A DNA stretch of 64,000 nt from an uncultured Alphaproteobacteria bacterium (GTDB lineage: Bacteria; Pseudomonadota; Alphaproteobacteria; RF32; CAG-239). The notes below the pieces were generated by a model, which had not been told where the DNA came from, made no database searches, and saw nothing but the letters and a program-made list of their open reading frames with translations. The stretch spans positions 47,115 through 111,114 of the forward strand of contig CALXPT010000001.1 in the NCBI GenBank assembly GCA_944390355.1. The letters run 5' to 3'. The translations under genes were made by a program, and so were the position numbers. Of this stretch, positions 12,332-40,789 are shown piece by piece (the stretch's first letter is position 1; every line of letters starts with the position of its first letter).

Positions 12332-13189
12332 CTAAAAAGCTAGGACTGGACGAACGTAACCGCCATTGCTATTCTTACCGTAGCCGTACACACCACCATT
12401 ACTGAAGCTCAATCCCCAAGCATGGTAACTAGAATTCTCGGAAGAAGACCAATACCAATCTGTCCCCAATTTTGTTCCGCCGATTTTCCCTAAAGCCGTG
12501 TTCAAAACATCTTTATTTTGATATATGGCATTCAACTCTCCCATAGCTGGCAAATACCAATCTCCGGCTTTTGTTCCATCTGTTTTATAGCTATTCACAT
12601 ATTCAACTGCAGGACAACCTCTCACATTCGTCTTGCAATACTCCAACACCAAACGCGTATTATTTTTACCTTGCCAATCTGCTGTTGCCGCTGATGATGA
12701 ACTATAATTTGATAATGTCGGTACATCAAAATATTCATCCGACCATTCTTTCCTCTCTGTATCCAATCCTATCGCCAAATGGTTAGTCGTATCAAACACC
12801 ACACCGATTGGCTTTTTAGACGCTACAACATTCGGATCACAACTCTTATCCGAATACAAGATATCGCCGATTTGACAATTACTCGACGATGCTCCGTTTT
12901 CTATTGTTACAATTTTTTCCTCTATTGTTGTTATTTTATTAGTGATTTCCGTTATCTTATTCGTTTGTTCGGTTATTTTGTTAGTTAGCTCCGTTATTTG
13001 AGTGCTTAAATCGCTTGCTGTGCAGTTCCATGCATTGCCGAACGGGCATTTAATACCGCCGTTACATGATTGACTGGAAGTATACCCCAAACTTGAACAA
13101 CTCGGGGTTTGGATACAGGCAGCCTCCGCCACACCGCTCAACAAACCACTCACCATCAAAGCTGATGAATATAATAAAAACTTTCTCAT
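12332..13189 (-). CDS. Secreted DUF1566 (Lcl C-terminal-like) protein with NKIT heptad repeats, cassette copy 1
   Basis: Signal peptide MRKFLLYSSALMVSGLLSGVAEA, Cys-rich N-module, tandem ITE(L/Q/I)TNKIT repeats, C-terminal DUF1566-like motifs (GDWYLP..EL, DWYWSSSE, AWGLSFSNG). Start moved to the internal Met. Confidence 0.7.
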   Translation of the reverse strand: MRKFLLYSSALMVSGLLSGVAEAACIQTPSCSSLGYTSSQSCNGGIKCPFGNAWNCTASDLSTQITELTNKITEQTNKITEITNKITTIEEKIVTIENGASSSNCQIGDILYSDKSCDPNVVASKKPIGVVFDTTNHLAIGLDTERKEWSDEYFDVPTLSNYSSSSAATADWQGKNNTRLVLEYCKTNVRGCPAVEYVNSYKTDGTKAGDWYLPAMGELNAIYQNKDVLNTALGKIGGTKLGTDWYWSSSENSSYHAWGLSFSNGGVYGYGKNSNGGYVRPVLAF

Positions 13190-13296
13190 TTTCTTTCTCC
13201 TGTAGGCGGGGCCTACCGCCACCAATTTTGCATTGTGCCCAGACCACCGCATTGTTAATAATTATTGGTTATTTTTCCCTCTCTCTTGACTTTGAA

Positions 13297-14157
13297 CTAT
13301 TGTTCAAAAGCGCAATAGTCGCACCAGTCGGTGCAGCCGGTTGCGCAACCGGTTACAATATATAAACTCGAGCATTCCTCATAAGTGCAGACCGAACACG
13401 GCGGACATTCGCTCTCCGTGCCTAAGTTCGGGCAGGGCTCACATTCCGAACACAAGGTTGTATTACCTGTTCGACAAGTCGGTGTGCCTGCTTTGCACCC
13501 CATATCGCCGCAGTCCAAAAATCCCGAACAGTCTTTCTCTTTGATTTGGTACAAATCACCATCACAAGATTTACAAGGTTCTCCGTCCGCCTCATAACCG
13601 TCGGGAATAGAACCTAATGTGTATTTGTATTCTGCCGGACAAGTCGGCGTACAACAGTCTTTGTATAAACCATTGCCGCAGACCGTACCGACACCTTTTA
13701 ACGGAGCTTCGCAAGTTTTGTAATCACTCGGACAATCCGGAATACATTCGGCAAAATATTTGTTATTCAGCGGACAATATTTGTTGCCTTTATAGCCGCT
13801 TGGGCAAGAGGTTTTGTCATAGCCCATTTTGATACAGCTGTCGGCATCACCACCCCCTGGGGGAATAACTTCCGGTGTGCCGCTTTCTAAATCCGTGCCG
13901 ACAAAATCCGCGCCGCCGCAGTCTTCGGTATCGGTGATAAAGCACACCTGCGCAACTTTAACCTCCGGCCGCTCGCTAAAACTCGGCGAAGACAAATGTC
14001 GAGCCATGAGGTGTGAAGTGTGTGATGTGTGTAATTTAGCATAGCTCGGAACTGGAGGTGCTTTCAGATTAAAACCAATTGATGCTTGAGCTTGATTATC
14101 CAACCAAGCCAAGCTTAATGCTGTTGCACACAGCAAAAGGCAACCCTTTTTCATCAT
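13297..14157 (-). CDS. Secreted cysteine-rich protein (~40 Cys), cassette copy 1
   Basis: Signal peptide; CxxC and CPxxY-rich modules; ~80% identical to the 38965..39840 product. Confidence 0.7.
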   Translation of the reverse strand: MMKKGCLLLCATALSLAWLDNQAQASIGFNLKAPPVPSYAKLHTSHTSHLMARHLSSPSFSERPEVKVAQVCFITDTEDCGGADFVGTDLESGTPEVIPPGGGDADSCIKMGYDKTSCPSGYKGNKYCPLNNKYFAECIPDCPSDYKTCEAPLKGVGTVCGNGLYKDCCTPTCPAEYKYTLGSIPDGYEADGEPCKSCDGDLYQIKEKDCSGFLDCGDMGCKAGTPTCRTGNTTLCSECEPCPNLGTESECPPCSVCTYEECSSLYIVTGCATGCTDWCDYCAFEQ

Positions 14158-14346
14158 AATACACCTCGCATAAAGTTCTAATTACATTTGTCTTCACGAC
14201 TCGTATTATAACACAAAAGAAAATTCCTTTCAATAGAAATTTTCAAGGCTGGACAAGGGTTTGGGCGAAGTGTTTTGCATAAAAAATCTTTAATTCTTTA
14301 TTTACATTTTTTTGCTAGTATCCTTACAATCGACGATTAGGGAGGA

Positions 14347-14562
14347 ATGTTTATGAACGCTCGAAAATTTGAGAACTTTGATTGGTCGAAATACGGAAAG
14401 TCTTCTAATGTCCGCCGCGGCGATATTTCTATGATTGCTACCACTATTATTAAAAACGGCGAGATTGTTGCTTCGCCCTCCAGACAACGCTTCGTTTGGC
14501 CCAGCTCTTTTGAAGAAAGTGCTTCTAACTTTATTTCCAAACGCGTGCGGGGTCGTTTCTAG
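14347..14562 (+). CDS. Hypothetical small protein, 71 aa
   Basis: AGGGAGGA Shine-Dalgarno 7 nt upstream of the ATG; the next ORF follows 3 nt later. Confidence 0.45.
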   Translation: MFMNARKFENFDWSKYGKSSNVRRGDISMIATTIIKNGEIVASPSRQRFVWPSSFEESASNFISKRVRGRF

Positions 14563-14565
14563 TTC

Positions 14566-14883
14566 ATGATTAAAGGTTTAATCGCTCTTTTTGTCAGCGG
14601 AATTATTTTTAATCCGGTCGTATTGCTCGGCATTATTATCGGTGCGTTTTGTGCCGTAAGGTTTGATTTGGAACAAATATTTGCGATTTTTAGGTCTTTT
14701 TCTTTTTTGGGATTAGCAATCCTCGTTTCTTTAATCTATAATTTTACGTTAAACAAACGTTTTCAGGATGACGAAATCACTCCCGATTATAAGGAAATAT
14801 TAAAAAATACTTTGAAATCCGCCGCACTATTTTACATCGCAAGTGCTTGCGGTGCTTTGCTGATTAATTTTATTGTCATTTAG
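14566..14883 (+). CDS. Hypothetical membrane protein (3 TM), 105 aa
   Basis: Hydrophobic segments; operon-like with the preceding ORF. Confidence 0.45.
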   Translation: MIKGLIALFVSGIIFNPVVLLGIIIGAFCAVRFDLEQIFAIFRSFSFLGLAILVSLIYNFTLNKRFQDDEITPDYKEILKNTLKSAALFYIASACGALLINFIVI

Positions 14884-14900
14884 CCAGCGGACAAATATCT

Positions 14901-15074
14901 CTATAACGAAATATCCACATTTTTACCGACGGTTGATGAGGTCGGCACGCTTCTATCCGGATCAAGCAATGTTTCTATCATTTGTTGTTGGGCTTCTATT
15001 TGCTCTTTTATCAGAGACATTTGCATCTCTTGAACAGCAAGAGCGTATGAGCCCAATGCGCCTATTTCTGCCAT
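14901..15074 (-). CDS. YjfB-family putative motility protein, 57 aa (not in the ORF track)
   Basis: Manual translation gives MAEIGALGSYALAVQEMQMSLIKEQIEAQQQMIETLLDPDRSVPTSSTVGKNVDISL with GGAGA Shine-Dalgarno upstream. The C-terminal G(K/Q)N(V/I)DI motif and the Q-rich helix match the YjfB motility family. Confidence 0.5.
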   Translation of the reverse strand: MAEIGALGSYALAVQEMQMSLIKEQIEAQQQMIETLLDPDRSVPTSSTVGKNVDISL

Positions 15075-15270
15075 GACACATTATCTCCCTCTTATACTTT
15101 TGTTTTATTATAACATAAAAATCTTAATCATTCACTAAAAAAAATATGACAAAACTCGCCGTTTTGTCCGCCAGACATTTTATATTCGTCTTGTCTTTTT
15201 TTAAATTTTATTTGCGCTTATTTTATTTTGAGTCTATCTTAAGTTTTGAAAATGTTTTGGAGTACATAAG

Positions 15271-17076
15271 TTGCCTGATATTCGCCTAGGACTGGAAATA
15301 TTAAAAAAACATATTGCAATCGCTCCCGAAAAACCGGGGGTTTATCGCATGCTCGGCGATAATGATAAGGTCTTGTATGTCGGCAAGGCAAAAAATATTA
15401 AACGGAGAATCACCTCTTATTCTCATATCAACAAACTTCCCGTTCGTTTGCAACGTATGGTCTCCGAAATTAAACGCATGGAGTTCATCATTGTTGAAAA
15501 CGAAGCAAAAGCTTTGCTGGTCGAAAATGAACTGATTAAAAATCTTGAACCCAAATACAATATTTTACTCAAAGATGACAAGACCTTTCCGCATTTGGTG
15601 ATTGATGTTGCCTCCCCTTATCCGGCTCTGCGAAAATACCGCGGGGCTCGCAATGATAAAAGTAAATATTTCGGCCCGTTTGCCAGCATCGGTGCCGTTA
15701 ACTCGGTTTTAGACGTTATTCAAAAGGCTTTTTTGTTGCGCTCTTGCCGAGACAGTGTCTTTAATAACCGCGACAGGCCTTGTCTCCTCTATCAAATTAA
15801 ACGCTGCTCCGCTCCCTGCGTCGGAAAAATTTCGCAACTGGACTACCGAAAGCTCGTGGATGAGGCTGTAGCCTTTCTTGAAGGAAAAAACTCTAAAATT
15901 CAAGATGAGCTCGCCGTCTTGATGCAAAAGGCAAGTGATGACATGAATTTTGAACTTGCCATGATTTATCGCGACAGAATCCGCGCTCTGACCAATGTTC
16001 AAAGCGGAAATATGGTCGAATATGCAAATATTAAATCTTGCGATGTTATCGGAATGGTTCGCAAATCTAATTTGGTTTGTATTCAAGTGTTTTTTATCCG
16101 CGGCGGGCAAAACTGCGGGAATGCCCCCTATTTTCCCAAACAAACCGAAGGGGCGGAAGATAAAGAAATTTTGGAAGCATTTTTGAGTTCTTTTTACAAC
16201 AACCACATTCCGCCTAAAGAAATTGTTATTTCCGAAGAACTTGAAAACAAAGAGTTTTTTGAAGAGGCTCTCAATACGCACATCAACACCTATCAAAAAG
16301 GAAACAAGCACAAACTTATCGAGCGTGCGCTTGAAAATGCCGCCGCGGCCATTGACCGCAAAATTGCCCTTGAAGCATCCGTTTTGGAAAACCTCTCCGA
16401 AATGCAAAGAATTTTTAATTTGCCCTCCATTCCTCAACGTATTGAAGTTTATGACAACTCCCATATTCAAGGCAGTTATGCCATCGGTGCCATGATTGTT
16501 GCCACCCCTGAGGGGTTTGATAAAAAACAATATCGTACCTTTAACATTAAAAATCCTGACATTACCAATGATGACTTCGCCATGATGAAAGAAGTCCTTA
16601 CCCGTCGCTTTGAGCGAATGACGCCCGAAAACAAGCCCGATGTGATTTTGCTTGACGGCGGATTGGGGCAGTTGCATGCCGTGCATGAGGCCTTGAAAAA
16701 CTATGACCTTGCCGATATTGCCATCATCGCTATTTCCAAAGGACCGGACAGAAATGCCGGCAAAGAATTTTATCATCAGCTTGGCAAAGAAAGTTTCTCT
16801 CTGCCCTTCCAATCCCCCATCGCTTTTTATATGCAAAATATTCGTGATGAGGCTCATCGTTTTGCTATCGGGACGCATCGCAAAAAAAGAGAAAAATCAA
16901 TCACTAAATCACGCTTGGATGAAATCGATGGAATCGGGGCAAAAAGAAAACATGATTTACTCAATTTCTTCGGCTCCGTCGAAGAACTCTCCCAAGCCTC
17001 TCTCAAAGATATCGAAAAAGTTAGCGGTATCAGCAAAAAAACAGCGGAAAAAATTTTTAACTACTTCCATAGTTAA
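15271..17076 (+). CDS. uvrC: Excinuclease ABC subunit C
   Basis: GIY-YIG N-domain (GVYRMLGDNDKVLYVGKAKNIKRR), UvrBC domain, RNase H-like domain and C-terminal HhH; TTG start. Confidence 0.9.
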   Translation: MPDIRLGLEILKKHIAIAPEKPGVYRMLGDNDKVLYVGKAKNIKRRITSYSHINKLPVRLQRMVSEIKRMEFIIVENEAKALLVENELIKNLEPKYNILLKDDKTFPHLVIDVASPYPALRKYRGARNDKSKYFGPFASIGAVNSVLDVIQKAFLLRSCRDSVFNNRDRPCLLYQIKRCSAPCVGKISQLDYRKLVDEAVAFLEGKNSKIQDELAVLMQKASDDMNFELAMIYRDRIRALTNVQSGNMVEYANIKSCDVIGMVRKSNLVCIQVFFIRGGQNCGNAPYFPKQTEGAEDKEILEAFLSSFYNNHIPPKEIVISEELENKEFFEEALNTHINTYQKGNKHKLIERALENAAAAIDRKIALEASVLENLSEMQRIFNLPSIPQRIEVYDNSHIQGSYAIGAMIVATPEGFDKKQYRTFNIKNPDITNDDFAMMKEVLTRRFERMTPENKPDVILLDGGLGQLHAVHEALKNYDLADIAIIAISKGPDRNAGKEFYHQLGKESFSLPFQSPIAFYMQNIRDEAHRFAIGTHRKKREKSITKSRLDEIDGIGAKRKHDLLNFFGSVEELSQASLKDIEKVSGISKKTAEKIFNYFHS

Positions 17077-17140
17077 TTTTTTTGAATTATATTGTTTTTA
17101 GTTTTTGTTATCGTTAACCTTTTTTTGAGGACTGAATACC

Positions 17141-17842
17141 GTGTATAATCTTCCTAATTTGCTTACAATTTCTCGTATTGTCGTTATTCCGGTTATCTTT
17201 TTATCTATTTATATTCACTCTTTAGCGTGGTCCGTGTTTGCCGCAATCTTGTTTATCATTGCGTCCATTACCGATTATCTGGACGGGTATTTGGCACGCA
17301 GCCGTAATGAAACTTCTTCTTTCGGCCGATTGTTCGACCCGATTGCCGATAAACTCTTGGTCGTGTCGGCTCTGTTGATTATTGTTGCGAATCGATTGGT
17401 GCATGAAATCAGCTATATCCCCGTGGTGGTGATTTTGTGCCGTGAGGTGCTCGTTTCCGGCTTGAGAGAGTTCTTAGCCGAAGTTAAAGTCGGTTTGCCG
17501 GTTACCAGACTCGCCAAGTGGAAAACAGGGTTTCAAATGACGGCTCTTTCCTTGATTTTATTAGCCGGTGTAAGCTCCGTGTTTGCCATTATCGGTGAAG
17601 TTTTGCTCTGGGTGGCTGGTGCTTTGACTTTTATTACCGGTTATCAATATCTTGAAAAAGGTATGGAATATATTCGCGGCGAGGCGGCTTCTCAAACCAT
17701 TAAAAAGGAAGTTAAGGCTGCCACCCAAAAGGTCATTAAAGCGGCTAAAAATGTTAAGTCCGCCGTGGAAACTACCGCAAAAAAACACGCAATGAAAAAA
17801 CAGGCCAGAAAAGCTATTCAAAACAGCAAAAAAGCTAAGTAA
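17141..17842 (+). CDS. pgsA: CDP-diacylglycerol--glycerol-3-phosphate 3-phosphatidyltransferase with Lys/Ala-rich C-terminal tail
   Basis: CDP-alcohol phosphotransferase motif DYLDGYLAR...FGRLFDPIADK; an extra ~48-aa KA-rich tail (KKEVKAATQKVIKAAKNVK...). Confidence 0.85.
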   Translation: MYNLPNLLTISRIVVIPVIFLSIYIHSLAWSVFAAILFIIASITDYLDGYLARSRNETSSFGRLFDPIADKLLVVSALLIIVANRLVHEISYIPVVVILCREVLVSGLREFLAEVKVGLPVTRLAKWKTGFQMTALSLILLAGVSSVFAIIGEVLLWVAGALTFITGYQYLEKGMEYIRGEAASQTIKKEVKAATQKVIKAAKNVKSAVETTAKKHAMKKQARKAIQNSKKAK

Positions 17843-17865
17843 TTTCTATTTTTGAACGGCGACGG

Positions 17866-18555
17866 ATGGAAAAAGATATTCCGCATATTTTGGTTGTTGA
17901 TGATGATACAAGGCTGCGTTCCTTGTTGCAAAGATTTTTGCGGGAGAGTTCTTTTTTGGTCTCCTCCGCAAAAAATGCCGATGAAGCGCGCGAGCGTCTC
18001 AAGGAATATGTGTTTGATGTTTTGATTGTCGATATTATGATGCCTCATGAAAGCGGCCTTGAATTTTTAGAAAAACTACGGCAAGTCAGCGATGTTCCGG
18101 TTATTTTGTTGACCGCAATGGGAACACCCGATGACCGTATTACGGGCTTGGAAACAGGTGCCGATGATTATCTGCCCAAGCCTTTTGAACCCAAAGAACT
18201 TTTGCTCCGTATCAAAAATATTTTAAAACGCGTACCGCAGAAAGGTGCAAAAACTGCTGATACGCTTTCGTTAGGGCTTTGCTTATACAATGTTTGCAGC
18301 AAAGAGCTTTTAACCAAAGCAGGACAGATTATTCATATTACGCCGGTGGAGCAGACTCTTATGGCGGTTCTGGCTCAAAAACCAGGGCAGATTTTTTCGC
18401 GTGAAAGATTAGCGGAAATACTCGGGGCGGGGCAGAATCCGCGTTCTATTGACGTACAGATTACACGTCTACGCAAAAAGATTGAGAAAGACTCTAAAAA
18501 TCCACGCTTTTTACAGACCGTTCGCGGCAAAGGATATATGCTTCTGCCGGAATGA
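17866..18555 (+). CDS. OmpR-family response regulator (possibly CenR-like)
   Basis: REC domain (VVDDD, D at DIMMP, KPFEPKELLLRI) plus winged-helix (RLRKKIE...TVRGKGY); no adjacent kinase gene. Confidence 0.8.
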   Translation: MEKDIPHILVVDDDTRLRSLLQRFLRESSFLVSSAKNADEARERLKEYVFDVLIVDIMMPHESGLEFLEKLRQVSDVPVILLTAMGTPDDRITGLETGADDYLPKPFEPKELLLRIKNILKRVPQKGAKTADTLSLGLCLYNVCSKELLTKAGQIIHITPVEQTLMAVLAQKPGQIFSRERLAEILGAGQNPRSIDVQITRLRKKIEKDSKNPRFLQTVRGKGYMLLPE

Positions 18556-18609
18556 TTTGGAAGATATTTTCGGAGTGGGGTATTGGGAGGGGAAGCGAGT
18601 ATTCTCTCT

Positions 18610-19941
18610 TTAGGGCATAATCGTTATCGGTGCGCCGACAATCTTATAATCCAGTTTCTTAAATATCTTGGCTAATTCACGACGATTTTTTTTGACGGCC
18701 ATTACATCTCCGTATGGGGCGCGGTACATTTCCGGTACGGCTAACATTGTTATAACCTGCGTTCCCTTGAAGATGTCAGGCAACTTGCTTATCTCTTCTT
18801 TATAGGCATTGTTTTGTATATTAATAATTGACTGCAGGGTTGTGGCGGTTATTTTGCTTTTGCGGTAGGCTTTGATGGTTTTGTCGCAAGTATAGGCCCA
18901 CTCTTCTAATGAAAATCCTTGCTTGCCGACAATCTTTACAAATTCGGCATCCATTTTTAACAACTTTAATCGCTGTGCCAAGCGTTGGCAGGGATTGACC
19001 ATATCTTTCAAATTGTTTAACGGAAGTGATGTTCCCTGACTTTGTTCATAAGCGTTTATCAATACACGCGCTTCAACCAATTTTGTTTGTGTTTCCAAAT
19101 CTGAGGCAAAATCTTTCAAATCGGATAATGTCGAAATAAAGGCTTTTACGTCTGCCGAACTTAACGGAGATGTTTGAGTCGGCTCGATTGTGCGGAGTTT
19201 GTCCGCCAATTTCGGGGCGTAAGGATTTTGGCTCGGAAAATAATTTTCGGGCGGGACGAGTTTTTTTATTCGCTCCATAAACGACGCATCATATTTGGTT
19301 TGCGGCAAATTTACCTTGGGCTTCGGGTATTCTGTCGGAAATTTATACCCAGGCCAGACTTCCGGCATCAGCAAAAAATAAAGATACGGCGACAAAAACT
19401 CAATATTTGGTATGTTTTGCAACTGAGGCGCAATTCGCTCCGGAAATTTGTTTTTGGTTTCTTTTATCCCCGGCATTTGTAAAATCCGCTCCGACATATT
19501 CGGCACTTGGTGCAAATAGGGGCCAATGTAGGGATAAACCTCTTTCGGCAGCATTTTAATCATCGCATAAAAATAGTCTTCGCCCTGACGCTTTAGGCGT
19601 TTGTCGCTCATGCCGAAAGCGGCAATCTTGGCTTTGAAATCAGGTCGAAATTTTTGCCCGATATTCCATGTGAATTCGTAGCCGTAATCATAATATTTTT
19701 CTTTGGTATAGGCTTTATGCAAATCCTCATACTCCGGAAATTTGGCATTGATATCTACGGCAAACAACTCTGCATTATTCTTGTTCTTGGGGATTGCGTT
19801 TTGATTATCTTCTACATCGATAACCATTTGCGGCTCTTTTGACTTCATCGCAAAGGTTATGGGGGCAACTGAGGCCTCTGCTCCGACGGCCGCCCCCACA
19901 AAATACAACAAAGATAATATCGTTATCCTTTGTTTTTTCAT
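18610..19941 (-). CDS. Secreted hypothetical protein, 443 aa
   Basis: Signal peptide; 6 nt downstream of the preceding gene on the same strand, so likely an operon. Confidence 0.5.
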   Translation of the reverse strand: MKKQRITILSLLYFVGAAVGAEASVAPITFAMKSKEPQMVIDVEDNQNAIPKNKNNAELFAVDINAKFPEYEDLHKAYTKEKYYDYGYEFTWNIGQKFRPDFKAKIAAFGMSDKRLKRQGEDYFYAMIKMLPKEVYPYIGPYLHQVPNMSERILQMPGIKETKNKFPERIAPQLQNIPNIEFLSPYLYFLLMPEVWPGYKFPTEYPKPKVNLPQTKYDASFMERIKKLVPPENYFPSQNPYAPKLADKLRTIEPTQTSPLSSADVKAFISTLSDLKDFASDLETQTKLVEARVLINAYEQSQGTSLPLNNLKDMVNPCQRLAQRLKLLKMDAEFVKIVGKQGFSLEEWAYTCDKTIKAYRKSKITATTLQSIINIQNNAYKEEISKLPDIFKGTQVITMLAVPEMYRAPYGDVMAVKKNRRELAKIFKKLDYKIVGAPITIMP

Positions 19942-19947
19942 TTTACT

Positions 19948-21411: not shown

Positions 21412-21572
21412 TCTTTTTACTCCCTTTCGCGTTTTGTTTCGCTTAATGTAGCAATTTTTATCTTAAAAAATCATAAAAAAACTTTTTTCACGCAATAAAA
21501 TACTAGACTCGCGGAAAATATTTGCATAAAATGAGGCATATTTATTGTTGTTTTATTGTAAGGAGTTTGGTT

Positions 21573-23865: not shown

Positions 23866-24306
23866 TTATTCCGTGAGGGTGTCTACAAGGGTGTAGAGAG
23901 CTTGTTTTAGGTTTGGATTTTTGATTTTGGCGATAGATTTGAGCATTGCAATATTTTGTTGGTCATAGAGCGGGTCGCCTTTGTCAAAAGGAAGCGGCGC
24001 GGATGAACTATAGAGTTGGCAAGGGCTTTGACTGGCGGTTTGTTCATCCATATCATCAAAGAAAAAAGTTACCGGAACGCGCAGGATTTTTGCAAAATCC
24101 CACAAGCGGCTGGCACTGACGCGGTTATGACCTTGTTCATATTTTTGCACTTGTTGGAAAGTAATGCCGAGTGTTTGGGCTAATTTTTCTTGTGATATTC
24201 TAAGCATGAGCCTACGCATACGGATACGGTTGCCGACATAAACATCAACAGGATTAGCCGAACCGTCGGCCAAAACCCCGCGTGATTTTTTGCGTTGTGA
24301 AATCAT
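23866..24306 (-). CDS. XRE-family helix-turn-helix transcriptional regulator
   Basis: Cro/C1-type HTH (RIRMRRLMLRISQEKLAQTLGITFQQVQKYEQGHNRVSASRL); ATG at 24306 with GGGGAG Shine-Dalgarno; the track's TTG at 24315 is less likely. Confidence 0.75.
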   Translation of the reverse strand: MISQRKKSRGVLADGSANPVDVYVGNRIRMRRLMLRISQEKLAQTLGITFQQVQKYEQGHNRVSASRLWDFAKILRVPVTFFFDDMDEQTASQSPCQLYSSSAPLPFDKGDPLYDQQNIAMLKSIAKIKNPNLKQALYTLVDTLTE

Positions 24307-24337
24307 ATTAATCAACTCCCCGTTTTATGAATTGTCC

Positions 24338-24364
24338 TAAAAAAGAAAGACCGCAAAAGCGGTC
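24338..24364 (-). terminator. Rho-independent terminator separating the upstream sRNA from the XRE gene
   Basis: On the minus strand, gaccgc-uuuu-gcggtc followed by TTTCTTTTTT, located 30 nt upstream of the XRE start codon. Confidence 0.6.
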
Positions 24365-24580
24365 GGGGAGTTCGTAAATCATGTTCTGTAAAATGATTCC
24401 TATGGTCTTTAAGGAGGAACCTCTGGACATACACCACAGGCTCCCCAACCATAAAAGATTGGAGATGGACGTGGTATATGAAATACCTTACGACATCATC
24501 CGTGTCGTACAGAACAAGAGCTTACGACAGCCCCGTGCCGTTTTATTCGGCACTAAGTACCGGCTATCTACCGATACCTA
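24338..24580 (-). ncRNA. Candidate cis-encoded structured sRNA upstream of the XRE regulator (Brt-like arrangement)
   Basis: Minus-strand promoter TTGAAA-16-TATATT (24587..24614), several hairpins, a covarying stem at 24399..24440 and the terminator at 24338..24364; no plausible ORF. Confidence 0.45.
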
Positions 24581-24586
24581 GCAACG

Positions 24587-24881: not shown

Positions 24882-24947
24882 CTAGAAGAAAGTGAGAGCC
24901 GAACCGTCGGGCAAAACCCCGCGTGATTTTTTGCGTTGTGAAATCAT
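24882..24947 (-). pseudogene. Truncated 5' fragment of an XRE-family gene (first ~14 codons conserved with the 23866..24306 gene)
   Basis: Minus strand atgatttcacaacgcaaaaaatcacgcggggttttgcccgacggttcggc is nearly identical to the XRE gene start; the frame ends after 21 codons. Confidence 0.45.
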
Positions 24948-24978
24948 ATTAATCAACTCCCCGTTTTGTGAATTATCC

Positions 24979-25115
24979 TAAAAAAGAAAGACCGCTGAAA
25001 AGCGGTCGGGAAGTTGAACAATCATACTTATTGAAATGACTCTTGTGGCCTTTAAGACCGAGAACCTCTGGACATACGCCACAAGCCTCCCGACCCTAAA
25101 AAAGCTTGAGATAAG
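24979..25115 (-). ncRNA. Degenerate second copy of the Brt-like sRNA 3' portion with its own terminator
   Basis: ~210-bp direct repeat of 24253..24465: the first ~100 nt are nearly identical, the rest ~75% identical with compensatory stem changes; terminator hairpin gaccgc-tgaaaa-gcggtc at 24990..25007. Confidence 0.35.
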
Positions 25116-25175: not shown

Positions 25176-25904
25176 TTATGCTTCGGTTTCGGCATTCTCA
25201 GCGGCCGCCGCTTTATCTAACGCATAGCCTGTCGAACGTACCGTGCGGATATAATCCGGACCATGCTCGTTCAAAGATTTTCTTAACCTGCGGATGTGAA
25301 CATCTACCGTGCGGGATTCTACATATATATTATCTCCCCAGACGTTCTTTAGCAGACTCTCCCTCGAGTGGACTTTATTCGGCGTTTCCATTAACATCTT
25401 AAGCAGGCGAAATTCGGTCGGCCCTAAGTGAATGAATACCCCATTTCTGAAAACCTTTTTTTCTACCAAATCCATATGGATATCTTCAAAATCAAGCTCT
25501 TTGGCCGTGGTCGGCTCCGGTGCTCGTCTCAACTGCGCCTTTACTCGCGCGATTAATTCCGGTACCGAAAACGGCTTGGTTACATAGTCATCCGCGCCCG
25601 AACTTAACCCCTTTATTTTGTCTTGTTCTTCGCCCTTGGCCGTTAACATTATTATCGGAATGTTTTTGATGTCCGGTTTGGAGCGGATAAGTTTGCATAT
25701 CTCAACTCCCGACATCTCCGGCAACATCCAATCCAGTACAATTACCGATGGTTGGTTTTTCTCAATCTCTGCCAAAGCTATGCCACCGCGGTTTACATGC
25801 TGAACTTTGAAACCTTCTTTTTCAAGATTATATTTGAGTAAAAGCGCCAGTGCCTCTTCATCTTCAACCAACATTATCAGTTTTGCCATGATTTTCTTAT
25901 CCAT
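25176..25904 (-). CDS. phoB: Phosphate regulon response regulator PhoB
   Basis: Strong match to the alphaproteobacterial PhoB pattern (LVEDEEAL, VLDWMLP, IIMLTAKGEE, KPFSVPELIARV, GPTEFRLL, VWG, RTVDVHIRRLRK, RTVR..GY). Confidence 0.85.
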   Translation of the reverse strand: MDKKIMAKLIMLVEDEEALALLLKYNLEKEGFKVQHVNRGGIALAEIEKNQPSVIVLDWMLPEMSGVEICKLIRSKPDIKNIPIIMLTAKGEEQDKIKGLSSGADDYVTKPFSVPELIARVKAQLRRAPEPTTAKELDFEDIHMDLVEKKVFRNGVFIHLGPTEFRLLKMLMETPNKVHSRESLLKNVWGDNIYVESRTVDVHIRRLRKSLNEHGPDYIRTVRSTGYALDKAAAAENAETEA

Positions 25905-31730: not shown

Positions 31731-31885
31731 AATTATTTATTTTTTATATGTTTCTGTTTATGGTTATAAAACATTTTTGTTATCAAATCAATAGTTTTGT
31801 CTATTTTCTTTTAGTTTTATTTTCTTTATTAATCATAAGTCAACTTTTGTTCTTTATAATCTCTTTGTTATTTGGTGAGGATGAT

Positions 31886-32419: not shown

Positions 32420-32553
32420 TCTTTGTTTTAATCTTTAGTTTACTTTTCCGATTCTCCCTTTGTTTTTTCTTATATAAAGACAAAATTTGACAAAGACTCT
32501 TTAAGGTGCTATAATTGTTTATCGTCAGTTTTTTACTTAGGGGAGATTGTATC

Positions 32554-33087: not shown

Positions 33088-33105
33088 ACAAACCGCTTTT
33101 AACTT

Positions 33106-33132
33106 AAGGCTCGCTTTTGCGAGCCTTTTTTT
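33106..33132 (+). terminator. Rho-independent terminator
   Basis: aaggctcgc-ttttgc-gagcctt followed by T7. Confidence 0.65.
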
Positions 33133-33138
33133 GTTTAT

Positions 33139-33702: not shown

Positions 33703-33704
33703 CC

Positions 33705-34310: not shown

Positions 34311-34391
34311 ATTGTTTGTAATTCGACACTATAGTATTTATATATAACAATATTTTGTCGTGTTCAATTTTTTTATTCGGGAGTTGAATAA

Positions 34392-35231
34392 ATGTTTGGA
34401 AAAAAATTTGTGCTTGCATCTTCCTTTTACCTTTTTTCTTTAACCTGCGTCTCGGCTCAGAATAACTCGGAAGAATTCTACCAAAATCTGCTGGTTTCTT
34501 CCGAACTGGAACAGCAAAGTGCAGAATCCGAGGCTAAAAATTCCGCATCCAAACTTCTTAATCGGCAGATTGAGGTTATCTCCCCAAATGTCTCGAACGA
34601 TGATGAAAACAGTATTCAAACCAGAAATCAGTTTTTTCAACAAATCAGCCAACAATACGGAAGTGCTCCTTTTGGTTTGATTTGGGGAGAATCGAGAAAA
34701 GATGCCGAGAAAATGGGCGTTCGTCTCATTCATGTCGAGGTTAAAGATTATCCCCAAGCCTATGAAGCGCAGAACCCTCCCATGCCCCTTAAGGATTTTC
34801 CAAAACTCACTTTGTTTTTCGGCGATAGTGACAAGTTGTTTCGAATCTTAGCCCAAAGTTCTTTTATTCAAGGTGATTTGCCAAAGGGCGAAAAAACCAT
34901 GCGACTCTATGATAAGTATTACAAATTGTTGGCTCAGAAATATAAAAACGCACAGCAATTTTATACGCCTGCCGTTCAAAATGTTGATGAATCTCTGCCT
35001 AATGACACACAATCATTAAACGCTGCTTCTCAAAATCCCAATGACAACCCGAATCTGTTGGCTGAGCTACAAAGCGGCAGTGCCGATTTGTATGCCACTT
35101 TTGACGGCGATAATGTCGGGGCGGCTCTTTCGGTTTCGGTCGACGGCGACGGACAATCTTATATTACGATTGATTACAGAAATTTAAAGATTCTTAAGGA
35201 AAATGAGTTAAATGTTTTAGAAGCGTTATAA
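34392..35231 (+). CDS. Secreted hypothetical protein, 279 aa
   Basis: Signal peptide MFGKKFVLASSFYLFSLTCVSAQ. Confidence 0.5.
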   Translation: MFGKKFVLASSFYLFSLTCVSAQNNSEEFYQNLLVSSELEQQSAESEAKNSASKLLNRQIEVISPNVSNDDENSIQTRNQFFQQISQQYGSAPFGLIWGESRKDAEKMGVRLIHVEVKDYPQAYEAQNPPMPLKDFPKLTLFFGDSDKLFRILAQSSFIQGDLPKGEKTMRLYDKYYKLLAQKYKNAQQFYTPAVQNVDESLPNDTQSLNAASQNPNDNPNLLAELQSGSADLYATFDGDNVGAALSVSVDGDGQSYITIDYRNLKILKENELNVLEAL

Positions 35232-35262
35232 TATTTTATTTTGTTTTTATGAAAAGGACTGT

Positions 35263-36657
35263 TTGATTATGAAAAAAGTTGCGTTTTGCGCCGTGTCCGG
35301 CAACGGAATGAGTCCGCTTGCCCAGATTTTGGTTAAAAGAGGTTATGATGTCAGAGGAAGCGATATCAGTTTTGATGCCGGAAGAGACCATGCGAATCTA
35401 AAAGCTATCAAAACCGCGGGGATTAAGGTTTTTCCGCAAGACGGGTCGATGATTGATGACGACTTGGAGTTCTTATGTGTGTCTTCCGCCATTACGGAGG
35501 ACAACCCCGACATTAAAGCCGCGCAAAGCAAGGGGCTTAAAATTATTAAACGTTCCGAACTCTTGGCGCAGATTTTTCATGAATACAAATACAACATTGC
35601 CGTCGGCGGTACGGCCGGAAAAACCACAACAACCGCTATGATCGGTTATATTCTTGATAAGCTCGGCAAAAAGCCCTGCATGATTGACGGCGGTATGCTC
35701 AAAAATTATGACAATCCTAACTTGTTGCCAAACTATATTTATAATGAAGGCGATATTTGCGTGGCCGAGGCTGATGAAAGCGACGGTTCCATCCGCTCTT
35801 ATCATCCGTATGTGGCGTTGGTAAACAATATTTCTCACGACCATGTGGAAATTCCGACTTTGGTGGAATATTTCAGCGAATTTGCTGCTCACGCCCGCCA
35901 TGCTTTGGTCGTGAATGGCGATTGTCCGCTTGCCTCCAAGCTCTCGCACAAAAACAAATTTGTTTTCTCGGTTCTGGACGCTCAAGCTGACTTATTTGCC
36001 TCAGACATTAAAACCGAAGATTATGGCGTCAGCTATCAAATTGAGGGCAAAAAGTTTAAGTTAAACATTATCGGCAAGTTTAATGTTTCTAACGCATTGG
36101 CCGCTATTGCCTGCTGTATGATGATTGGCGTGGACAAGTTTGAGGCGGCCAAGGCTTTGGAAGGATTTGTCGGTATCAAACGCCGTTTGGAAGTTGTCGG
36201 TACTTCTTTCAACGGAATTACCGTTATTGATGATTTTGCCCACAATGCCAGCAAAATCGAAGCATCTCTCTCCGCTGTCAAAGAACACAAAGGCCGCTTG
36301 ATTGTGATGTATCAATCGCACAAACCTTTTTCCGCGCGCACAACCGGTGAGGAAGACGGCGTGGTCTTTGGTAAAACACTTGATAAAGACGATATTTTGC
36401 TTATGCCCGAGATTTATATGCGCGACCCTGTTCAAGACGCCGACATCTCCGGTGCCGACCTTGTGCGCTATGCGCAAAATAACGGCGTCAACGCTCTGTT
36501 TCTGGAAACAAAAGACAAGGTTAAACAATATATTATCGACCATGCGCAAACGGGCGACAGAATCGTGATTATGGGTGCTCGCGATAACTCTCTTCCCGAT
36601 TTTTGCAAGCAGATTTTGAAAGAGTTGGATGAAAAACCTTTGGCCGCTAATTTTTAA
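35263..36657 (+). CDS. mpl: Mur-ligase family protein, probably UDP-N-acetylmuramate:L-Ala-gamma-D-Glu-meso-DAP ligase (Mpl)
   Basis: Rossmann N-domain, ATP-binding GGTAGKTTTTAMI, Mur ligase C-domain; adjacent to an LD-carboxypeptidase gene (recycling pair). Confidence 0.6.
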   Translation: MIMKKVAFCAVSGNGMSPLAQILVKRGYDVRGSDISFDAGRDHANLKAIKTAGIKVFPQDGSMIDDDLEFLCVSSAITEDNPDIKAAQSKGLKIIKRSELLAQIFHEYKYNIAVGGTAGKTTTTAMIGYILDKLGKKPCMIDGGMLKNYDNPNLLPNYIYNEGDICVAEADESDGSIRSYHPYVALVNNISHDHVEIPTLVEYFSEFAAHARHALVVNGDCPLASKLSHKNKFVFSVLDAQADLFASDIKTEDYGVSYQIEGKKFKLNIIGKFNVSNALAAIACCMMIGVDKFEAAKALEGFVGIKRRLEVVGTSFNGITVIDDFAHNASKIEASLSAVKEHKGRLIVMYQSHKPFSARTTGEEDGVVFGKTLDKDDILLMPEIYMRDPVQDADISGADLVRYAQNNGVNALFLETKDKVKQYIIDHAQTGDRIVIMGARDNSLPDFCKQILKELDEKPLAANF

Positions 36658-36672
36658 GGAATAGGAAAACAA

Positions 36673-37566
36673 ATGTATTATCCTCTGCATAAAGGTGATA
36701 AAATCGGGCTGGTTTCGCCCTCGCGCTATGTAACCGAACAAGAAATCAGCAAGGGGGTCGAGTATCTGCGTTCGCTCGGTTTTAATCCCGTGATGGGCAA
36801 AAACGCGTTTAAGTCTTTTCGGTTTATGGCGGGAACACCCGAAGAACGCGCCGAGGATATTATGGGATTTTTCCTTGACCCCGAAATTAAGGCGATTTTT
36901 GCAACTTCGGGTGGCGACGGGAGCCAATATATTTTGCCGTTGCTGGATTTTGCAGCAATAAAACAAAACCCAAAACCGCTTTGGGGTTTTAGCGATACAA
37001 CCGCTTTGCAAAACGCTTTGGTGGAAAAATGCGGCTTAATCTGCCCGTATGGGTTGACGCTGAATTATGACTTTCGCTCGGGTGAGATTAATCCAACGCT
37101 CGGGAACAGCGTGTCAAACATGATTTTCGGCAATGAATTTTGCTATGCTTACGGGCAATCCGTTATCACCGGAACAGCGGAAGGAAAGCTGGTCGGCGGA
37201 TGTCTGAGCTTATTGCGCAACTTGTGTGGGACGCCTTATTTTCCGTCCCTTAACGGGGCAATCTTGCTGGTTGAAGATGAGCAGGAAACAACCTACAAAC
37301 TTGATTTGATGCTGCAACAAATTTCGCAATGCAAAGATTTTGACAAGCTCAGAGGTATTATCTTCGGGCGGTTCTTTGAATGTACCGTGCGGCGGGAAAG
37401 TGACGGAACAATTGATGATGTTATCGCTTATTTTGCCAAACAACTCTCTATTCCGGTGGTTAAAGATTTTCCGATGGGGCATGAATTTAAGCGCGTTATG
37501 CTGCCCTTGGGCGCAGATGTCAAAATCATCAGCTCCTCCCAAGGCTGTCAGGTTTGTTCCCTATAA
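36673..37566 (+). CDS. ldcA: LD-carboxypeptidase (S66 family, LdcA-like)
   Basis: S66 length and layout, GFSDTTAL nucleophile motif. Confidence 0.65.
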   Translation: MYYPLHKGDKIGLVSPSRYVTEQEISKGVEYLRSLGFNPVMGKNAFKSFRFMAGTPEERAEDIMGFFLDPEIKAIFATSGGDGSQYILPLLDFAAIKQNPKPLWGFSDTTALQNALVEKCGLICPYGLTLNYDFRSGEINPTLGNSVSNMIFGNEFCYAYGQSVITGTAEGKLVGGCLSLLRNLCGTPYFPSLNGAILLVEDEQETTYKLDLMLQQISQCKDFDKLRGIIFGRFFECTVRRESDGTIDDVIAYFAKQLSIPVVKDFPMGHEFKRVMLPLGADVKIISSSQGCQVCSL

Positions 37567-38016
37567 ACATTTACGCACAAAAAAAACAGAGAAACGTTTC
37601 TCAACGGTTCTCTGTTCAAGTTTAACCAAAAAAATAATCCATCTAAATGTCTTGAACACAAAGAGAAAGGAGGTGTTCAAGATTTAGAATCCACATAACT
37701 AATTGCTATGACTAAAACGGGGAAGGATGTTTCACAACATATTAATCTTCCCACCAGATCGCTATCTGTTCCACTTAAAATCTAAAACTATGGAATAAAA
37801 GCGTCTCACGACGGTTTGTCTTTAAGCCTAATCAGAGGAAACAAAAATTTCGTCCGTGAGGCTCTATATCTTTGGAAATTATAATCTAAATAATTAATTT
37901 GTGGTTTTCTTCTACTTTGTTTTCTTTATTTTGTCAACATATTTTTTTAAGCTTTTACTTTTTTGTTTTTTTATGCTAAAAATTTTTTATGTTTTGATTT
38001 TCAGAAAGGGATTTTG

Positions 38017-38790
38017 ATGTCTAAAGTTATTACAATGATTCCGGTGCGTATGGCCTCCACCCGCTTGCCGAACAAACCTTTACTTGACGTGAACGGCAAA
38101 AGTGTTTTGCAACGCGTGTATGAAAATGTTAAGGCCGTTGTCCCAGGGGATATTGTCATTGCCGCAGGAGACCAAATTTTGGTGGATGAAGCGCAAAAGT
38201 TCGGGGCAACCGCCATTTTGACCGATCCAAAGCTCCCAAGCGGAACAGATCGTATTGCCGCCGCTTTGCAACAAATTGACCCAGACGGCTCTAAATATGA
38301 CATCGTGGTTGATTTTCAAGGCGACGGGCTCAATGTTGACCCGAAAGTTAATCTCGGTTTGATTGAAATGATTGAACGAACCAACTGCGATATAGCAACC
38401 TGTGGCATGATTTTTAAAAATGAAAAAGATATTCATGACCCGACGATGGTTAAAATCTGCATGGGCTTGCGTGAGGGCGAGACGGAAGGCAGATGTTTGT
38501 ATTTTACACGCGCCGCCGCCCCTTATATTCGCAATCCCGAAAAATGCAAAAATCATGACTATTATCACCATATCGGGATTTATGTTTTCAAGGCCGAATC
38601 GCTGAAAAAAATTGTTTCTCTCCCCATGGGGGTGTTAGAAGAAAAAGAATCTCTCGAACAGCTCCGCGCCCTTGAAAACGGTATGACTATTCGCGCCAAG
38701 ATTATCAATAATATGAAGTTGGTTGATGAAGCTCCGGCGGATATTAACACACCTGAAGAATATGCCGAGGCTTGTAAGTGGATTAAATAA
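38017..38790 (+). CDS. kdsB: 3-deoxy-manno-octulosonate cytidylyltransferase
   Basis: IPVRMASTRLPNKPL signature; start at MSKVI with Shine-Dalgarno. Confidence 0.85.
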   Translation: MSKVITMIPVRMASTRLPNKPLLDVNGKSVLQRVYENVKAVVPGDIVIAAGDQILVDEAQKFGATAILTDPKLPSGTDRIAAALQQIDPDGSKYDIVVDFQGDGLNVDPKVNLGLIEMIERTNCDIATCGMIFKNEKDIHDPTMVKICMGLREGETEGRCLYFTRAAAPYIRNPEKCKNHDYYHHIGIYVFKAESLKKIVSLPMGVLEEKESLEQLRALENGMTIRAKIINNMKLVDEAPADINTPEEYAEACKWIK

Positions 38791-38964
38791 ATTTTTATCG
38801 CTTAAGTTTTGTTACGCCTGAGTTTAGAACTCGGGCGTTTTTTTGTAAAAAGAATTCGTGCAAACCCTTGTCCAGCCCCGAAAATTTCTATTGAAAGGAT
38901 TTTTTTCTTGTGGTATAATACGAGTCGTGAAGACAAGTGTAATTTAGAAATTTTGAGGTGTATT

Positions 38965-39840
38965 ATGATGAAAAATGGTTACCTATTGCTGTGTGCAACA
39001 GCATTAAGCTTGGCTTGTGTATCTAATCAAGCTCAAGCATCAATTAATTTTAATCTCAAAGCACCTCCGATTCTAAATGTGGTTGACAGACACACACAAC
39101 ACACACCGAATTTATCAGCCCGAAGCTTGTCTTCCCCCTTTTCTAAAGAAAGAGAATTTAAGGTTGCGCAAGTTTGTTGGATAACCGATACGGATGACTG
39201 CGGCGGGGCGGATTTTGTCGGTACGGATTTAGAAAGCGGCACACCGGAAGTTATTCCCCCTGGGGGCGGAGATGCCGAAAGCTGTATCCGAATGGGGTAT
39301 GATAAAACCTCGTGTCCGAGCGGCTATAAGGGCAACAAATATTGCCCGCTCAATAATGCCTATTTTGCCGAATGTATTCCGGATTGTCCGAGCAGTTACG
39401 TAACTTGTCAATCGCCACAGCAAGGCGTTGGAGAGGTTTGCGGCAACGGGTTATACAAAGACTGCTGTATGCCGACGTGTTCGTCAGATTATAAATATAC
39501 GCTGGGTTCAATTCCCGACGGTTATGAGGCGGACGGCGAGCCCTGTATGGAATGCGACGAGGGCGGATTGAAAATCAAAGAAAAATACAAAATCAAAGAG
39601 AAAGACTGTTCTGGCTTTATAGATTGCGGCGATATGGGATGCAAGGCCGGAGCGACGACGTGTCAAAGCGGAAGTCAGGTTAAGTGTTCGGAATGTGAAC
39701 CCTGCCCGAATCTTGGCACGGAGAGCGAATGTCCGCCGTGCTCGGTTTGCACTTATGAAGAATGCTCGAATTTATATGTTGTAACCGGTTGTGCAACCGG
39801 CTGCACCGACTGGTGCGACTATTGCGCGTTTGAACAATAA
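38965..39840 (+). CDS. Secreted cysteine-rich protein, cassette copy 2
   Basis: ~80% identical to the 13297..14157 product (same signal peptide, same Cys framework, identical C-terminus GCATGCTDWCDYCAFEQ). Confidence 0.7.
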   Translation: MMKNGYLLLCATALSLACVSNQAQASINFNLKAPPILNVVDRHTQHTPNLSARSLSSPFSKEREFKVAQVCWITDTDDCGGADFVGTDLESGTPEVIPPGGGDAESCIRMGYDKTSCPSGYKGNKYCPLNNAYFAECIPDCPSSYVTCQSPQQGVGEVCGNGLYKDCCMPTCSSDYKYTLGSIPDGYEADGEPCMECDEGGLKIKEKYKIKEKDCSGFIDCGDMGCKAGATTCQSGSQVKCSECEPCPNLGTESECPPCSVCTYEECSNLYVVTGCATGCTDWCDYCAFEQ

Positions 39841-39874
39841 CTTAGAACTGAAATTATTATCAAGGAGATGTGTT

Positions 39875-40789
39875 ATGCAAAAATTTTTATTATATTCATC
39901 AGCTTTGTTTCTATTGAGCGGTGCTGCGGAAGCAGCCTGTATTCAAACCCCGACTTGTTCAAGCTTGGGATATACCTCGAGTTCATCCTGCAACGGCGGA
40001 ATCAAATGCCCGTTCGGCAATGCATGGAATTGTACAATCATAGATAAAATCACGGAAATCACGAATAAGATTACAACCATTGAAGAAAAAATAACCGTGA
40101 TAGAAGAGAACGGTGGCAGCAGCTCTACGCCTGATTACAGTAATTGCAAAATCGGATCTATCTTGTATTCGGATTTTAGCTGTAACGAAAATGTTGTTTA
40201 TACTAAAGAACCAATCGGCGTGGTGTTTGATGAGGTAAACCATTTGGCTGTTGCTTTGGAGGAAAAAGAAAATGTTGCGTGGTCAACGACTGCTTTTGAT
40301 ATTCCAGGGCTCGATTTGCACCCAAGTGATGCTGAATATGATGGATGGGGAAAAAAGAACACTCGTGTAATTTATGAATATTGCAAAGCAAACGGCAAAA
40401 GCTGTCCGGCAGTGGAATATGCCTATGAATACACAACCGCCGGTACAAGTGCCGGTGATTGGCATTTGCCATCTTATGTGGAGTTTGACTATATTAGCAC
40501 TAACACGAGTACCATCAATGATACTATTAAGAAAATAAATAAAAAGCCTCTTTATGATTATTCAAATTACCATGGAAACATGCAGCAACATGTTTATTAC
40601 GTCTATTATTGGACTTCAACAGCGATAGATAAACAAAATGTTTATACATTCGGGGGTGATTATTATGGCGATAGGCGTATTATAGAAAAAACATTAATAA
40701 ATCATACAGATACCGGAAGTAGTATTTATGATGGATTTACTGGTTATTATCATTATGTTTACATATCTCGTCCAGTCATTGCTTTCTAA
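39875..40789 (+). CDS. Secreted DUF1566 (Lcl-like) protein with a shorter NKIT repeat tract, cassette copy 2
   Basis: N-terminal ~55 aa nearly identical to copy 1, fewer heptad repeats, diverged DUF1566-like C-domain (GDWHLP, YWTST). Confidence 0.65.
   Translation: MQKFLLYSSALFLLSGAAEAACIQTPTCSSLGYTSSSSCNGGIKCPFGNAWNCTIIDKITEITNKITTIEEKITVIEENGGSSSTPDYSNCKIGSILYSDFSCNENVVYTKEPIGVVFDEVNHLAVALEEKENVAWSTTAFDIPGLDLHPSDAEYDGWGKKNTRVIYEYCKANGKSCPAVEYAYEYTTAGTSAGDWHLPSYVEFDYISTNTSTINDTIKKINKKPLYDYSNYHGNMQQHVYYVYYWTSTAIDKQNVYTFGGDYYGDRRIIEKTLINHTDTGSSIYDGFTGYYHYVYISRPVIAF

Follow-up and report, generated by a model that had tools for sequence, protein, structure and literature searches.

The 64,000-nt stretch of DNA analysed here (the window; positions 47,115 to 111,114 of contig CALXPT010000001.1, assembly GCA_944390355.1) comes from an uncultured alphaproteobacterium and carries two copies of a two-gene cassette in opposite orientation. 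In each copy, the gene of a cysteine-rich (Cys-rich) secreted protein precedes the gene of a partner protein with a lectin-like C-terminal part. The analysis centred on the last codons of the partner gene in copy 1 (partner 1), which resemble the variable region (VR) of a diversity-generating retroelement (DGR). The cassette features are as follows.

13297..14157, minus strand: Cys-rich secreted protein, copy 1, 286 aa, with 31 Cys (29 past the predicted signal peptide)
12332..13189, minus strand: partner protein, copy 1, 285 aa, with signal peptide, 5-Cys module, coiled coil and Lcl_C/DUF1566 domain
~13022-13117, minus strand: 5-Cys module of partner 1
~12890-13018, minus strand: heptad coiled coil of partner 1
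12335..12451, minus strand: DGR-type VR, the last 39 codons (117 nt) of partner 1, WSSSE...YVRPVLAF
14205..14233, minus strand: promoter-like site of cassette 1, TTGAAA, a 17-nt spacer and a TG-extended TATAAT, 11/12 matches
12279..12310, minus strand: GC-rich hairpin and T-run, 22 nt 3' of the partner 1 stop codon
38965..39840, plus strand: Cys-rich secreted protein, copy 2, 291 aa
39875..40789, plus strand: partner protein, copy 2 (partner 2), 304 aa, with the same signal peptide and 5-Cys module and a shorter coiled coil
38891..38919, plus strand: promoter-like site of cassette 2, with hexamers identical to those of cassette 1
40790..40831, plus strand: terminator-like hairpin closing cassette 2, with an 18-bp stem
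63146..64000, minus strand: 3' 284 codons of a third partner-type gene, 315 aa in full, running off the window end

A preliminary description of this DNA had placed the four open reading frames (ORFs) of copies 1 and 2 at these positions and on these strands, as the same pair in the same internal order, and all four were confirmed there. The Cys-rich products, described as ~80% identical with an identical C-terminus, were 79% identical (E=4e-165) and shared the C-terminus GCATGCTDWCDYCAFEQ. The partners likewise had the near-identical signal peptide and 5-Cys module and the diverged C-terminal parts attributed to them (58% identity over ~240 aa, E=2e-81). Both copies of the pair are real, but the count of two was too low, as a third cassette begins at 63146. 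The predicted signal peptides of the cassette proteins were read by eye as MMKKGCLLLCATALSLAWLDNQAQA, followed by S, and MRKFLLYSSALMVSGLLSGVAEA, followed by A.

Each cassette probably forms an operon. The intergenic gaps measure 107 nt and 34 nt, no terminator-like site was found between the two genes of either cassette, and hairpins follow the second gene in both. The hairpin at 12279-12310 is probably an intrinsic terminator and possibly also corresponds to the inverted repeat that lies 3' of the initiation of mutagenic homing (IMH) site at some DGR targets. The IMH, a short invariable sequence at the VR 3' end, guides retrohoming. Downstream inverted repeats were described for 34% of DGRs (PMC5758913), and a strong hairpin, differing in sequence, follows most of the VR-bearing genes of the family that were examined. 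A scan of the window against Rfam gave no match, and no tRNAs were found.

Partner 1 matched Pfam Lcl_C (PF07603, formerly DUF1566) with 41.0 bits (E=2.6e-10) at a gathering threshold of 34.9. Partner 2 scored 17.9 bits, below this threshold, and the assignment of both partners to DUF1566 in the preliminary description thus stood for copy 1 only. Partner 2 nevertheless shares its homology with copy 1 over most of this domain and is best regarded as a divergent relative rather than a certified member. An AlphaFold2 model of partner 1 had a mean predicted local distance difference test score (pLDDT) of 76, with a helix over residues 58-100 and pLDDT values >90 for a large part of the C-terminal domain (residues ~150-260). 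In the PDB, this head was best matched, in structure and in sequence, by the Bacteroides fimbrial protein BACOVA_04982 (PDB 4eps), which was found in a profile search together with the C-terminal domain of Lcl (8q4e). Foldseek retrieved the same two structures with the model (E=9e-6 and E=3.5e-4, respectively), followed by weaker matches to snake-venom C-type-lectin-like proteins. The likeness to BACOVA_04982 is limited to the lectin-like head, and partner 1 has no fimbrial shaft domain; the NCBIfam model FimD_tip_adhes matched partner 1 weakly.

The helix of partner 1 is a series of ITxxTNK heptads in which position a is Ile and position d is Ile, Leu or Gln. Profile searches matched this segment weakly to coiled coils of the trimeric type (2yny, 6gao). 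Lcl has the shape of a trimeric lollipop, its stalk being of collagen (PMC11162425). Together with the coiled-coil helix, this points to a trimeric lollipop in which the coiled coil replaces collagen. The partner is probably an exported lollipop composed of a 5-Cys module, a coiled-coil stalk that would be trimeric, and an Lcl_C head. Lipoprotein anchoring was considered and rejected, as the residues before the Cys (A-E-A-A-C) are unfit for a lipobox. Partner 1 and Lcl (PDB 8q4e; PMC11162425) are alike in their C-terminal DUF1566 head on an elongated stalk. They differ in that partner 1 has heptads instead of collagen-like repeats and contains cysteines, whereas the C-terminal domain of Lcl is without disulfides. 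With the NCBIfam model adhesin_Lcl (NF046116), for which 500 bits are required, partner 1 scored 26.5 bits, over its C-terminal domain only.

Close homologues of partner 1 were conserved throughout except for ~35 residues that extend from WSSSE to an invariant YVRPVLAF and are rich in N, S, Y, G, D and H. The pattern of change in this stretch was examined against paralogues from a sister species, represented by the metagenome-assembled genome (MAG) BRZ_MQ__bin8. The scaffold codons, from TGG TCT TCT TCC GAG to the stop codon, were identical in nucleotide sequence between the window and these paralogues, synonymous sites included, while the variable codons had changed mostly at positions 1-2. 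Upstream of the VR the divergence was ordinary, and the Cys-rich proteins of BRZ_MQ__bin8 were only ~55% identical to those of the window.

In the sister species, a DGR lies next to one of the cassettes. The gene order at this locus of BRZ_MQ__bin8 (L010) is Cys-rich gene, target gene, bAvd, two template repeats (TR1 and TR2) and reverse transcriptase (RT). The bAvd protein (125 aa) matched PF22296 with 58.6 bits against a cut-off of 40, and the RT (439 aa) matched PF00078 (RVT_1) with 64 bits. The RT also contains, as read by eye, the motif IGNLTSQ, which we take to be typical of DGR RTs. TR1 (114 nt) and TR2 (117 nt) are tandem, A-rich, non-coding copies of the VR segment; an ~80-nt leader precedes each of them, with a period of ~274 nt (L010, 12506-12896; L087-L095). 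The same layout of bAvd, TRs and RT, with two TRs per DGR, was present at further loci (L070-L072, L082-L083, L086-L097). The RT homologue clusters P0203, P0206, P0212, P0202, P0470 and P0474 all represent DGRs of this type, and none could be tied to the window genome.

Several observations relate these templates to the VRs. At least ten VRs of BRZ_MQ__bin8, among ~17 VR-like segments found, matched TR1 or TR2 with 14-20 mismatches at A sites and 0-4 at other sites. At L070 the adjacent VR, as read from the sequences, differs from its TR2 at adenines only. Over more than 10 sister-species samples TR1 and TR2 were near-invariant, with one C/T site in the constant 3' end, and the DGR-adjacent VR was different in every sample. 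This VR was of the TR1 type in L087, L089 and L090 and of the TR2 type in L088, L094 and L095, indicating that both templates act on the same locus. The DGR of the sister species is complete and active-looking.

The window VR fits the same templates. It differed from TR1 of the sister species by 19 A-site mismatches, one non-A mismatch and one 3-nt gap (an extra codon). Compared with a hybrid of the 5' part of TR1 and the tail of TR2 (CGT variant, L094), the VR differed at 20 of 43 adenines and at 0 of 74 other positions, a count of zero that is not fully independent, as the hybrid was itself built from sister-species TRs. The same hybrid VR type (TR1 5' part, TR2 tail) occurs in the sister MAG at L017. 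VR and TRs have the 3' end TACGTTCGCCCAGTCCTAGCTT in common, i.e. ...TACGTTCG(T/C)CCAGTCCTAGCTT, after which they split into TTTAG in the VR and ATTC in the TRs. A common 3' end followed by divergence is what would be expected of IMH and IMH*. The inferred template contains ~18 AAY or AAA codons and, by codon-table arithmetic, could specify a number of protein variants of the order of 1e20.

Strains of the window species were compared over the same region. At L073 (sample BRZ_DP) the VR and its flanks were identical to the window, and the same VR was present in sample L001 and in the strain behind cluster P0088 (a contig from study ONAT22). L074 (BRZ_AI) differed from the window at one position in 10.7 kb of flank and at two positions in the VR. 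L075 (BRZ_SL) showed 95 differences in the 10.7-kb flank (0.9%) and 19 in the 117 nt of the VR, distributed over codon positions 1/2/3 as 11/7/1 and all located at inferred A sites (Fisher test of VR versus flank, with 75/9800 for the flank, p=9e-19). In L076 (BRZ_SI) the VR was of another template type. The change of the VR in closely related strains, together with the switch of template, points to very recent activity in the window species.

The VR lies at the C-terminus of a C-type-lectin fold, according to the Pfam Lcl_C and Foldseek matches. The C-terminal 40 residues of Lcl align with it, and the aligned stretch includes, by count of chain positions, K369, K380, K385 and K391. These lysines bind glycosaminoglycans in Lcl (PMC11162425), so that a retroelement would randomise the counterpart of the Lcl ligand surface. 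As the head of partner 1 is hypervariable, no fixed ligand such as a glycosaminoglycan can be assumed for it. The suggestion of a surface or adhesin module in the preliminary description was broadly right with respect to the lectin-like domain recovered by Pfam, the PDB profile and Foldseek, but the C-domain divergence of copy 1, taken there for that of paralogues, is a DGR-type VR and not ordinary paralogue drift. A surface or ligand-binding role of this paralogous, apparently exported two-gene module is plausible.

On these grounds we consider it highly probable that the copy 1 partner is a DGR target within a multicopy family of operons for Cys-rich and lectin-like proteins. A number of observations speak against this explanation, among them the constructed hybrid template mentioned above. 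The 64-kb window and the 10 kb beyond either end contained no TR, Avd or RT, and metagenome contig scans for the inferred TR gave 0 matches. VR lengths range from 114 to 123 nt among the paralogues, which is not produced by retrohoming alone. The VR retains invariant codons that contain adenine (GAG, AAG, TAC), and purifying selection is required to keep them. The cassette proteins have no lipobox, barrel or other anchor, and the model of the Cys-rich protein reached moderate confidence only (mean pLDDT 62). Within the window, a degenerate VR/TR pattern search recovered only the VR itself, and a self-BLAST for repeat pairs with A-biased mismatches found none. Given the lack of TR, Avd and RT in the window and its 10-kb flanks, copy 1 would be a remote target, and the window genome would hold a DGR of its own elsewhere.

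The missing TR and RT, together with the varying VR lengths, could be accommodated without any retroelement if the hypervariable C-terminus of partner 1 had arisen by diversifying selection and gene conversion among paralogues. That conversion occurs in this family is evident from the mosaic patches and indels that distinguish paralogues and strains. Such a process leaves unexplained why scaffold codons are identical at synonymous sites across species, why the changes are limited to template-adenine positions, mostly at codon positions 1-2, and why A-rich non-coding copies of the segment lie between bAvd and RT in the sister-species genomes. We therefore regard an origin without a retroelement as very improbable. 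The absence of DGR parts from the 84 kb around the locus would also agree with a relic target, i.e. a VR written in the past or in an ancestor, with the DGR now lost and copy 1 frozen; the single VR shared by L001, L073 and the P0088 strain points the same way. A frozen copy is difficult to reconcile with two VR changes at one flank difference in 10,700 nt, with 19 VR changes at 0.9% flank divergence and with a third strain that has switched template type. A relic is thus unlikely, and recent rewriting of copy 1 by a DGR at a distance is preferred.

Copy 2 was tested as a second VR and rejected, as the VR scaffold is absent (WTSTA... instead of WSSSE...). The partner 2 gene was identical in two samples, and its C-terminal half was highly conserved at the nucleotide level with a sister-species paralogue, from which it differed by scattered changes and one indel block without an A-biased pattern. 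Its Lcl_C-like domain carries insertions. Inspection of the sequences thus gave no sign of retrohoming at copy 2. The third cassette was recovered in full at L080 (12286-14181), a locus that matches the window without any difference from 60861 to 64000. The Cys-rich gene of this cassette (312 aa) lies just past the window end and is of the same type as cluster P0017, with an extra C-terminal Cys module. The third partner has the N-terminal Cys module of the other partners, but Cys-rich linkers replace the coiled coil and the head is different; searches of Pfam and NCBIfam gave no match for this protein or for the long fused forms of the family described below. Between strains it varies in mosaic patches (307, 315 and 306 aa) that are not A-biased. 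Neither copy 2 nor the third cassette is diversified; both are paralogues that bear heads of other types.

The opposite orientation of copies 1 and 2 had led the preliminary description to propose that they mediate inversion of the intervening segment. The inverted repeat spans ~12760-14286 and 38838-40260 and takes in ~130 nt 5' of the Cys-rich genes, including the promoter-like site in both copies. It consists of seven ungapped blocks of 74-93% identity (~80-85% overall); the upstream blocks 14180-14286/38838-38944 and 14049-14167/38955-39073 are 86% and 89% identical, respectively. Recombination between these arms would flip a 25-kb segment (rpoZ side to kdsB side), and in its favour the arms are inverted, ~1.4 kb long and clearly homologous, and members of the family do exchange sequence. 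The longest exact run between the two cassettes is 38 nt. Repeats of such identity and run length are a poor substrate for RecA-dependent recombination. The arrangement uvrC side, cassette 1, rpoZ was kept in five contigs of the window species from five samples, and the order kdsB, cassette 2, HAD hydrolase in seven contig records, all of which encode the exact Cys-rich protein of copy 2 in an identical neighbourhood. None of these 12 contig records contained a hybrid junction or an inversion, and no recombinase was present among the genes called around either cassette. Inversion of the segment is hardly to be expected, and the opposite orientation of the two copies is incidental.

L073, compared with the window over 20 kb, illustrates the exchange of sequence within the family: its Cys-rich gene carries 15 substitutions in a 105-nt patch at the 3' end (L073 10720-10825, corresponding to ~13333-13438 of the window), two more lie early in the partner gene, and the rest is identical. 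Copy 2 and the third cassette were both excluded as donor of this patch. It looks like a gene conversion from another family member, and exchange between family members seems to be non-reciprocal, as in gene conversion, rather than by inversion.

The cassettes belong to a large, lineage-specific family of two-gene operons, found in uncultured Alphaproteobacteria. The Cys-rich proteins matched no Pfam or NCBIfam family. Homologues fell into 81 clusters, all metagenomic and none named, and a profile search of 1.84 billion cluster representatives yielded 316 proteins at E<=1e-3 and 53 at <=1e-30, many of them long fusions. In a scan of species-representative genomes, nearly all of 68 loci were located in four MAGs of uncultured Alphaproteobacteria, three of which contained ~17-24 each. 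Many contigs of the related MAGs (loci L002-L069), as well as L074 and L076, break in or just after a cassette, as expected from repeats and VR heterogeneity in short-read assembly, and the copy numbers per genome are therefore lower bounds. The two proteins are closely associated throughout the related MAGs. Among 70 distinct Cys-rich genes, 42 have a partner-type gene immediately 3' on the same strand and 22 are long ORFs (>400 aa or also matching the partner, several of them matching both proteins); the remaining 6 are truncated by contig ends. All 64 evaluable Cys-rich genes are thus followed by, or part of, a partner-type ORF. The N-terminal 5-Cys module was present in 39 of the 42 partners. 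In the fusion P0021 the Cys-rich protein is joined directly to the Lcl_C lectin head, and in P0014, P0015 and P0017 a copy of the 5-Cys module stands at the C-terminus of the Cys-rich protein.

Some partners measure ~470 aa (proteins P0082-P0097; L013, 8992-10416; L018, 10889-12292), and those at L013 and L018 have two VR-like segments, which suggests two tandem lectin domains. VRPVI(D/N)(Y/F) closes the internal segment and VRPV(LAF/MQY) the terminal segment.

The alignment of the Cys-rich family contains 26 invariant Cys. The pair C221/C236 was jointly present in 46 sequences, jointly absent in 9 and never single, a co-variation in keeping with a disulfide and with an oxidising compartment. 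In 41 of 55 Cys-rich sequences the mature protein contains 29 Cys, and in 29 of 39 partner sequences it contains 9. Odd numbers in both mature proteins would be compatible with a single intermolecular disulfide, or a single free thiol, in each; combined with the fusions and the fixed gene order, they suggest a physical, perhaps disulfide-linked, complex. In the favoured explanation the proteins would be exported to the cell surface, trimerise, form a complex of the two and act in ligand binding as adhesin or receptor. A more far-reaching proposal, which we put forward tentatively and hold to be rather less than probable, is that the Cys-rich and lectin-like proteins constitute an obligatory, possibly disulfide-linked surface display. 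In what would be a new kind of DGR target module, a conserved base or anchor with 29 Cys would dock a trimeric coiled-coil lectin through its 5-Cys module, and the retroelement would rewrite the lectin tip. The ~20 loci, combined with two templates able to act on one locus, would provide a combinatorial receptor repertoire far larger than that of any characterised bacterial DGR. In the full-text DGR literature searched, no description of a Cys-rich partner of this kind was found.

Lectin-type VRs of the DUF1566 (CLec2) class and remote targets are established features of DGRs, for example in Legionella and Treponema (PMC5758913), and copy 1 is a DGR target of this known class. The CLec2 class (DUF1566-DUF823-Fib_succ_major), with LdtA of L. 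pneumophila (Wu et al. 2018, PMC5758913), has the VR at the C-terminus of a DUF1566-type domain, as here. A-to-N substitutions, a GC hairpin after the constant 3' end and an exported target with conserved cysteines are common to the LdtA class and the copy 1 family, and the order target, avd, TR, RT in the sister species equals architecture B (PMC5758913). LdtA is a lipoprotein, whereas partner 1 has no lipobox. Unlike the LdtA class, partner 1 has a coiled-coil stalk and a 5-Cys module, and a 29-Cys protein always precedes it or is fused to it. The sister species also differs in having two tandem TRs and at least ten VRs that match them, and the window copy in lying away from any RT. The DGR of Treponema denticola (TvpA) likewise combines one retroelement with scattered exported targets of lectin fold (PMC5758913). 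It has an HRDC accessory gene and belongs to architecture C (PMC5758913), in contrast to the bAvd found here, and compared with it the family described here has Lcl_C-type heads and more candidate targets per genome. New features are the architecture (Cys-rich partner, Cys module and coiled-coil stalk), the number of loci per genome and the two tandem templates.

Other features of the window lie outside cassettes 1 and 2. The third cassette is adjoined by a gene for a TraG/VirD4-like coupling protein of a type IV secretion system (60861-63053, plus strand; T4SS-DNA_transf, TrwB_AAD_bind and TraG-D_C), whose 730-aa product was found as an identical protein in 89 blocks of the assembly collection. 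Ahead of this gene lie four ORFs without Pfam match (56252-60842, plus strand). Just downstream of cassette 2, a weak GGDEF-domain protein is encoded at 42314-43549 (minus strand); the gene at 43688-45763 (plus strand) encodes a protein of 691 aa that falls short of the protein-kinase threshold (30.5 versus 31.7 bits). A direct repeat of ~200 nt (24256-24456 and 24897-25101, spacing ~641-645 nt) contains a 99-nt block of 97% and a 40-nt block of 85% identity and is located in a mostly non-coding, GC-richer stretch without Rfam match. Its first copy lies over the start of an HTH_3 gene (23866-24315, minus strand), the second just 3' of a response-regulator gene (25176-25904, minus strand).

According to the mechanism we propose, the RT together with Avd would copy template repeat RNA and misincorporate at template adenines. 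The mutated cDNA would then overwrite the VR at 12335-12451, at the end of the partner 1 head, and ~18 codons would be randomised in the segment corresponding by alignment to the surface with which Lcl binds glycosaminoglycans. The product of the Cys-rich gene would be Sec-exported and disulfide-rich, with 29 Cys in its mature form.

To our knowledge, DGRs are the sole known prokaryotic system of targeted protein hypermutation. An ordinary-looking duplicated pair of hypothetical genes is here one of many scattered DGR targets, in a host lineage that was recovered repeatedly in metagenome assemblies of several studies. Remote targets of this kind were invisible to a large metagenome survey of DGRs (PMC8144416). 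Target loci are clearly more numerous per genome than the seven non-adjacent targets recorded as the maximum in the 2018 survey (PMC5758913), and a Cys-rich partner accompanies every target examined. If the two proteins act together, they would represent a new architecture for the display of hypervariable lectins, and such a two-protein display would give a handle on what these bacteria bind.

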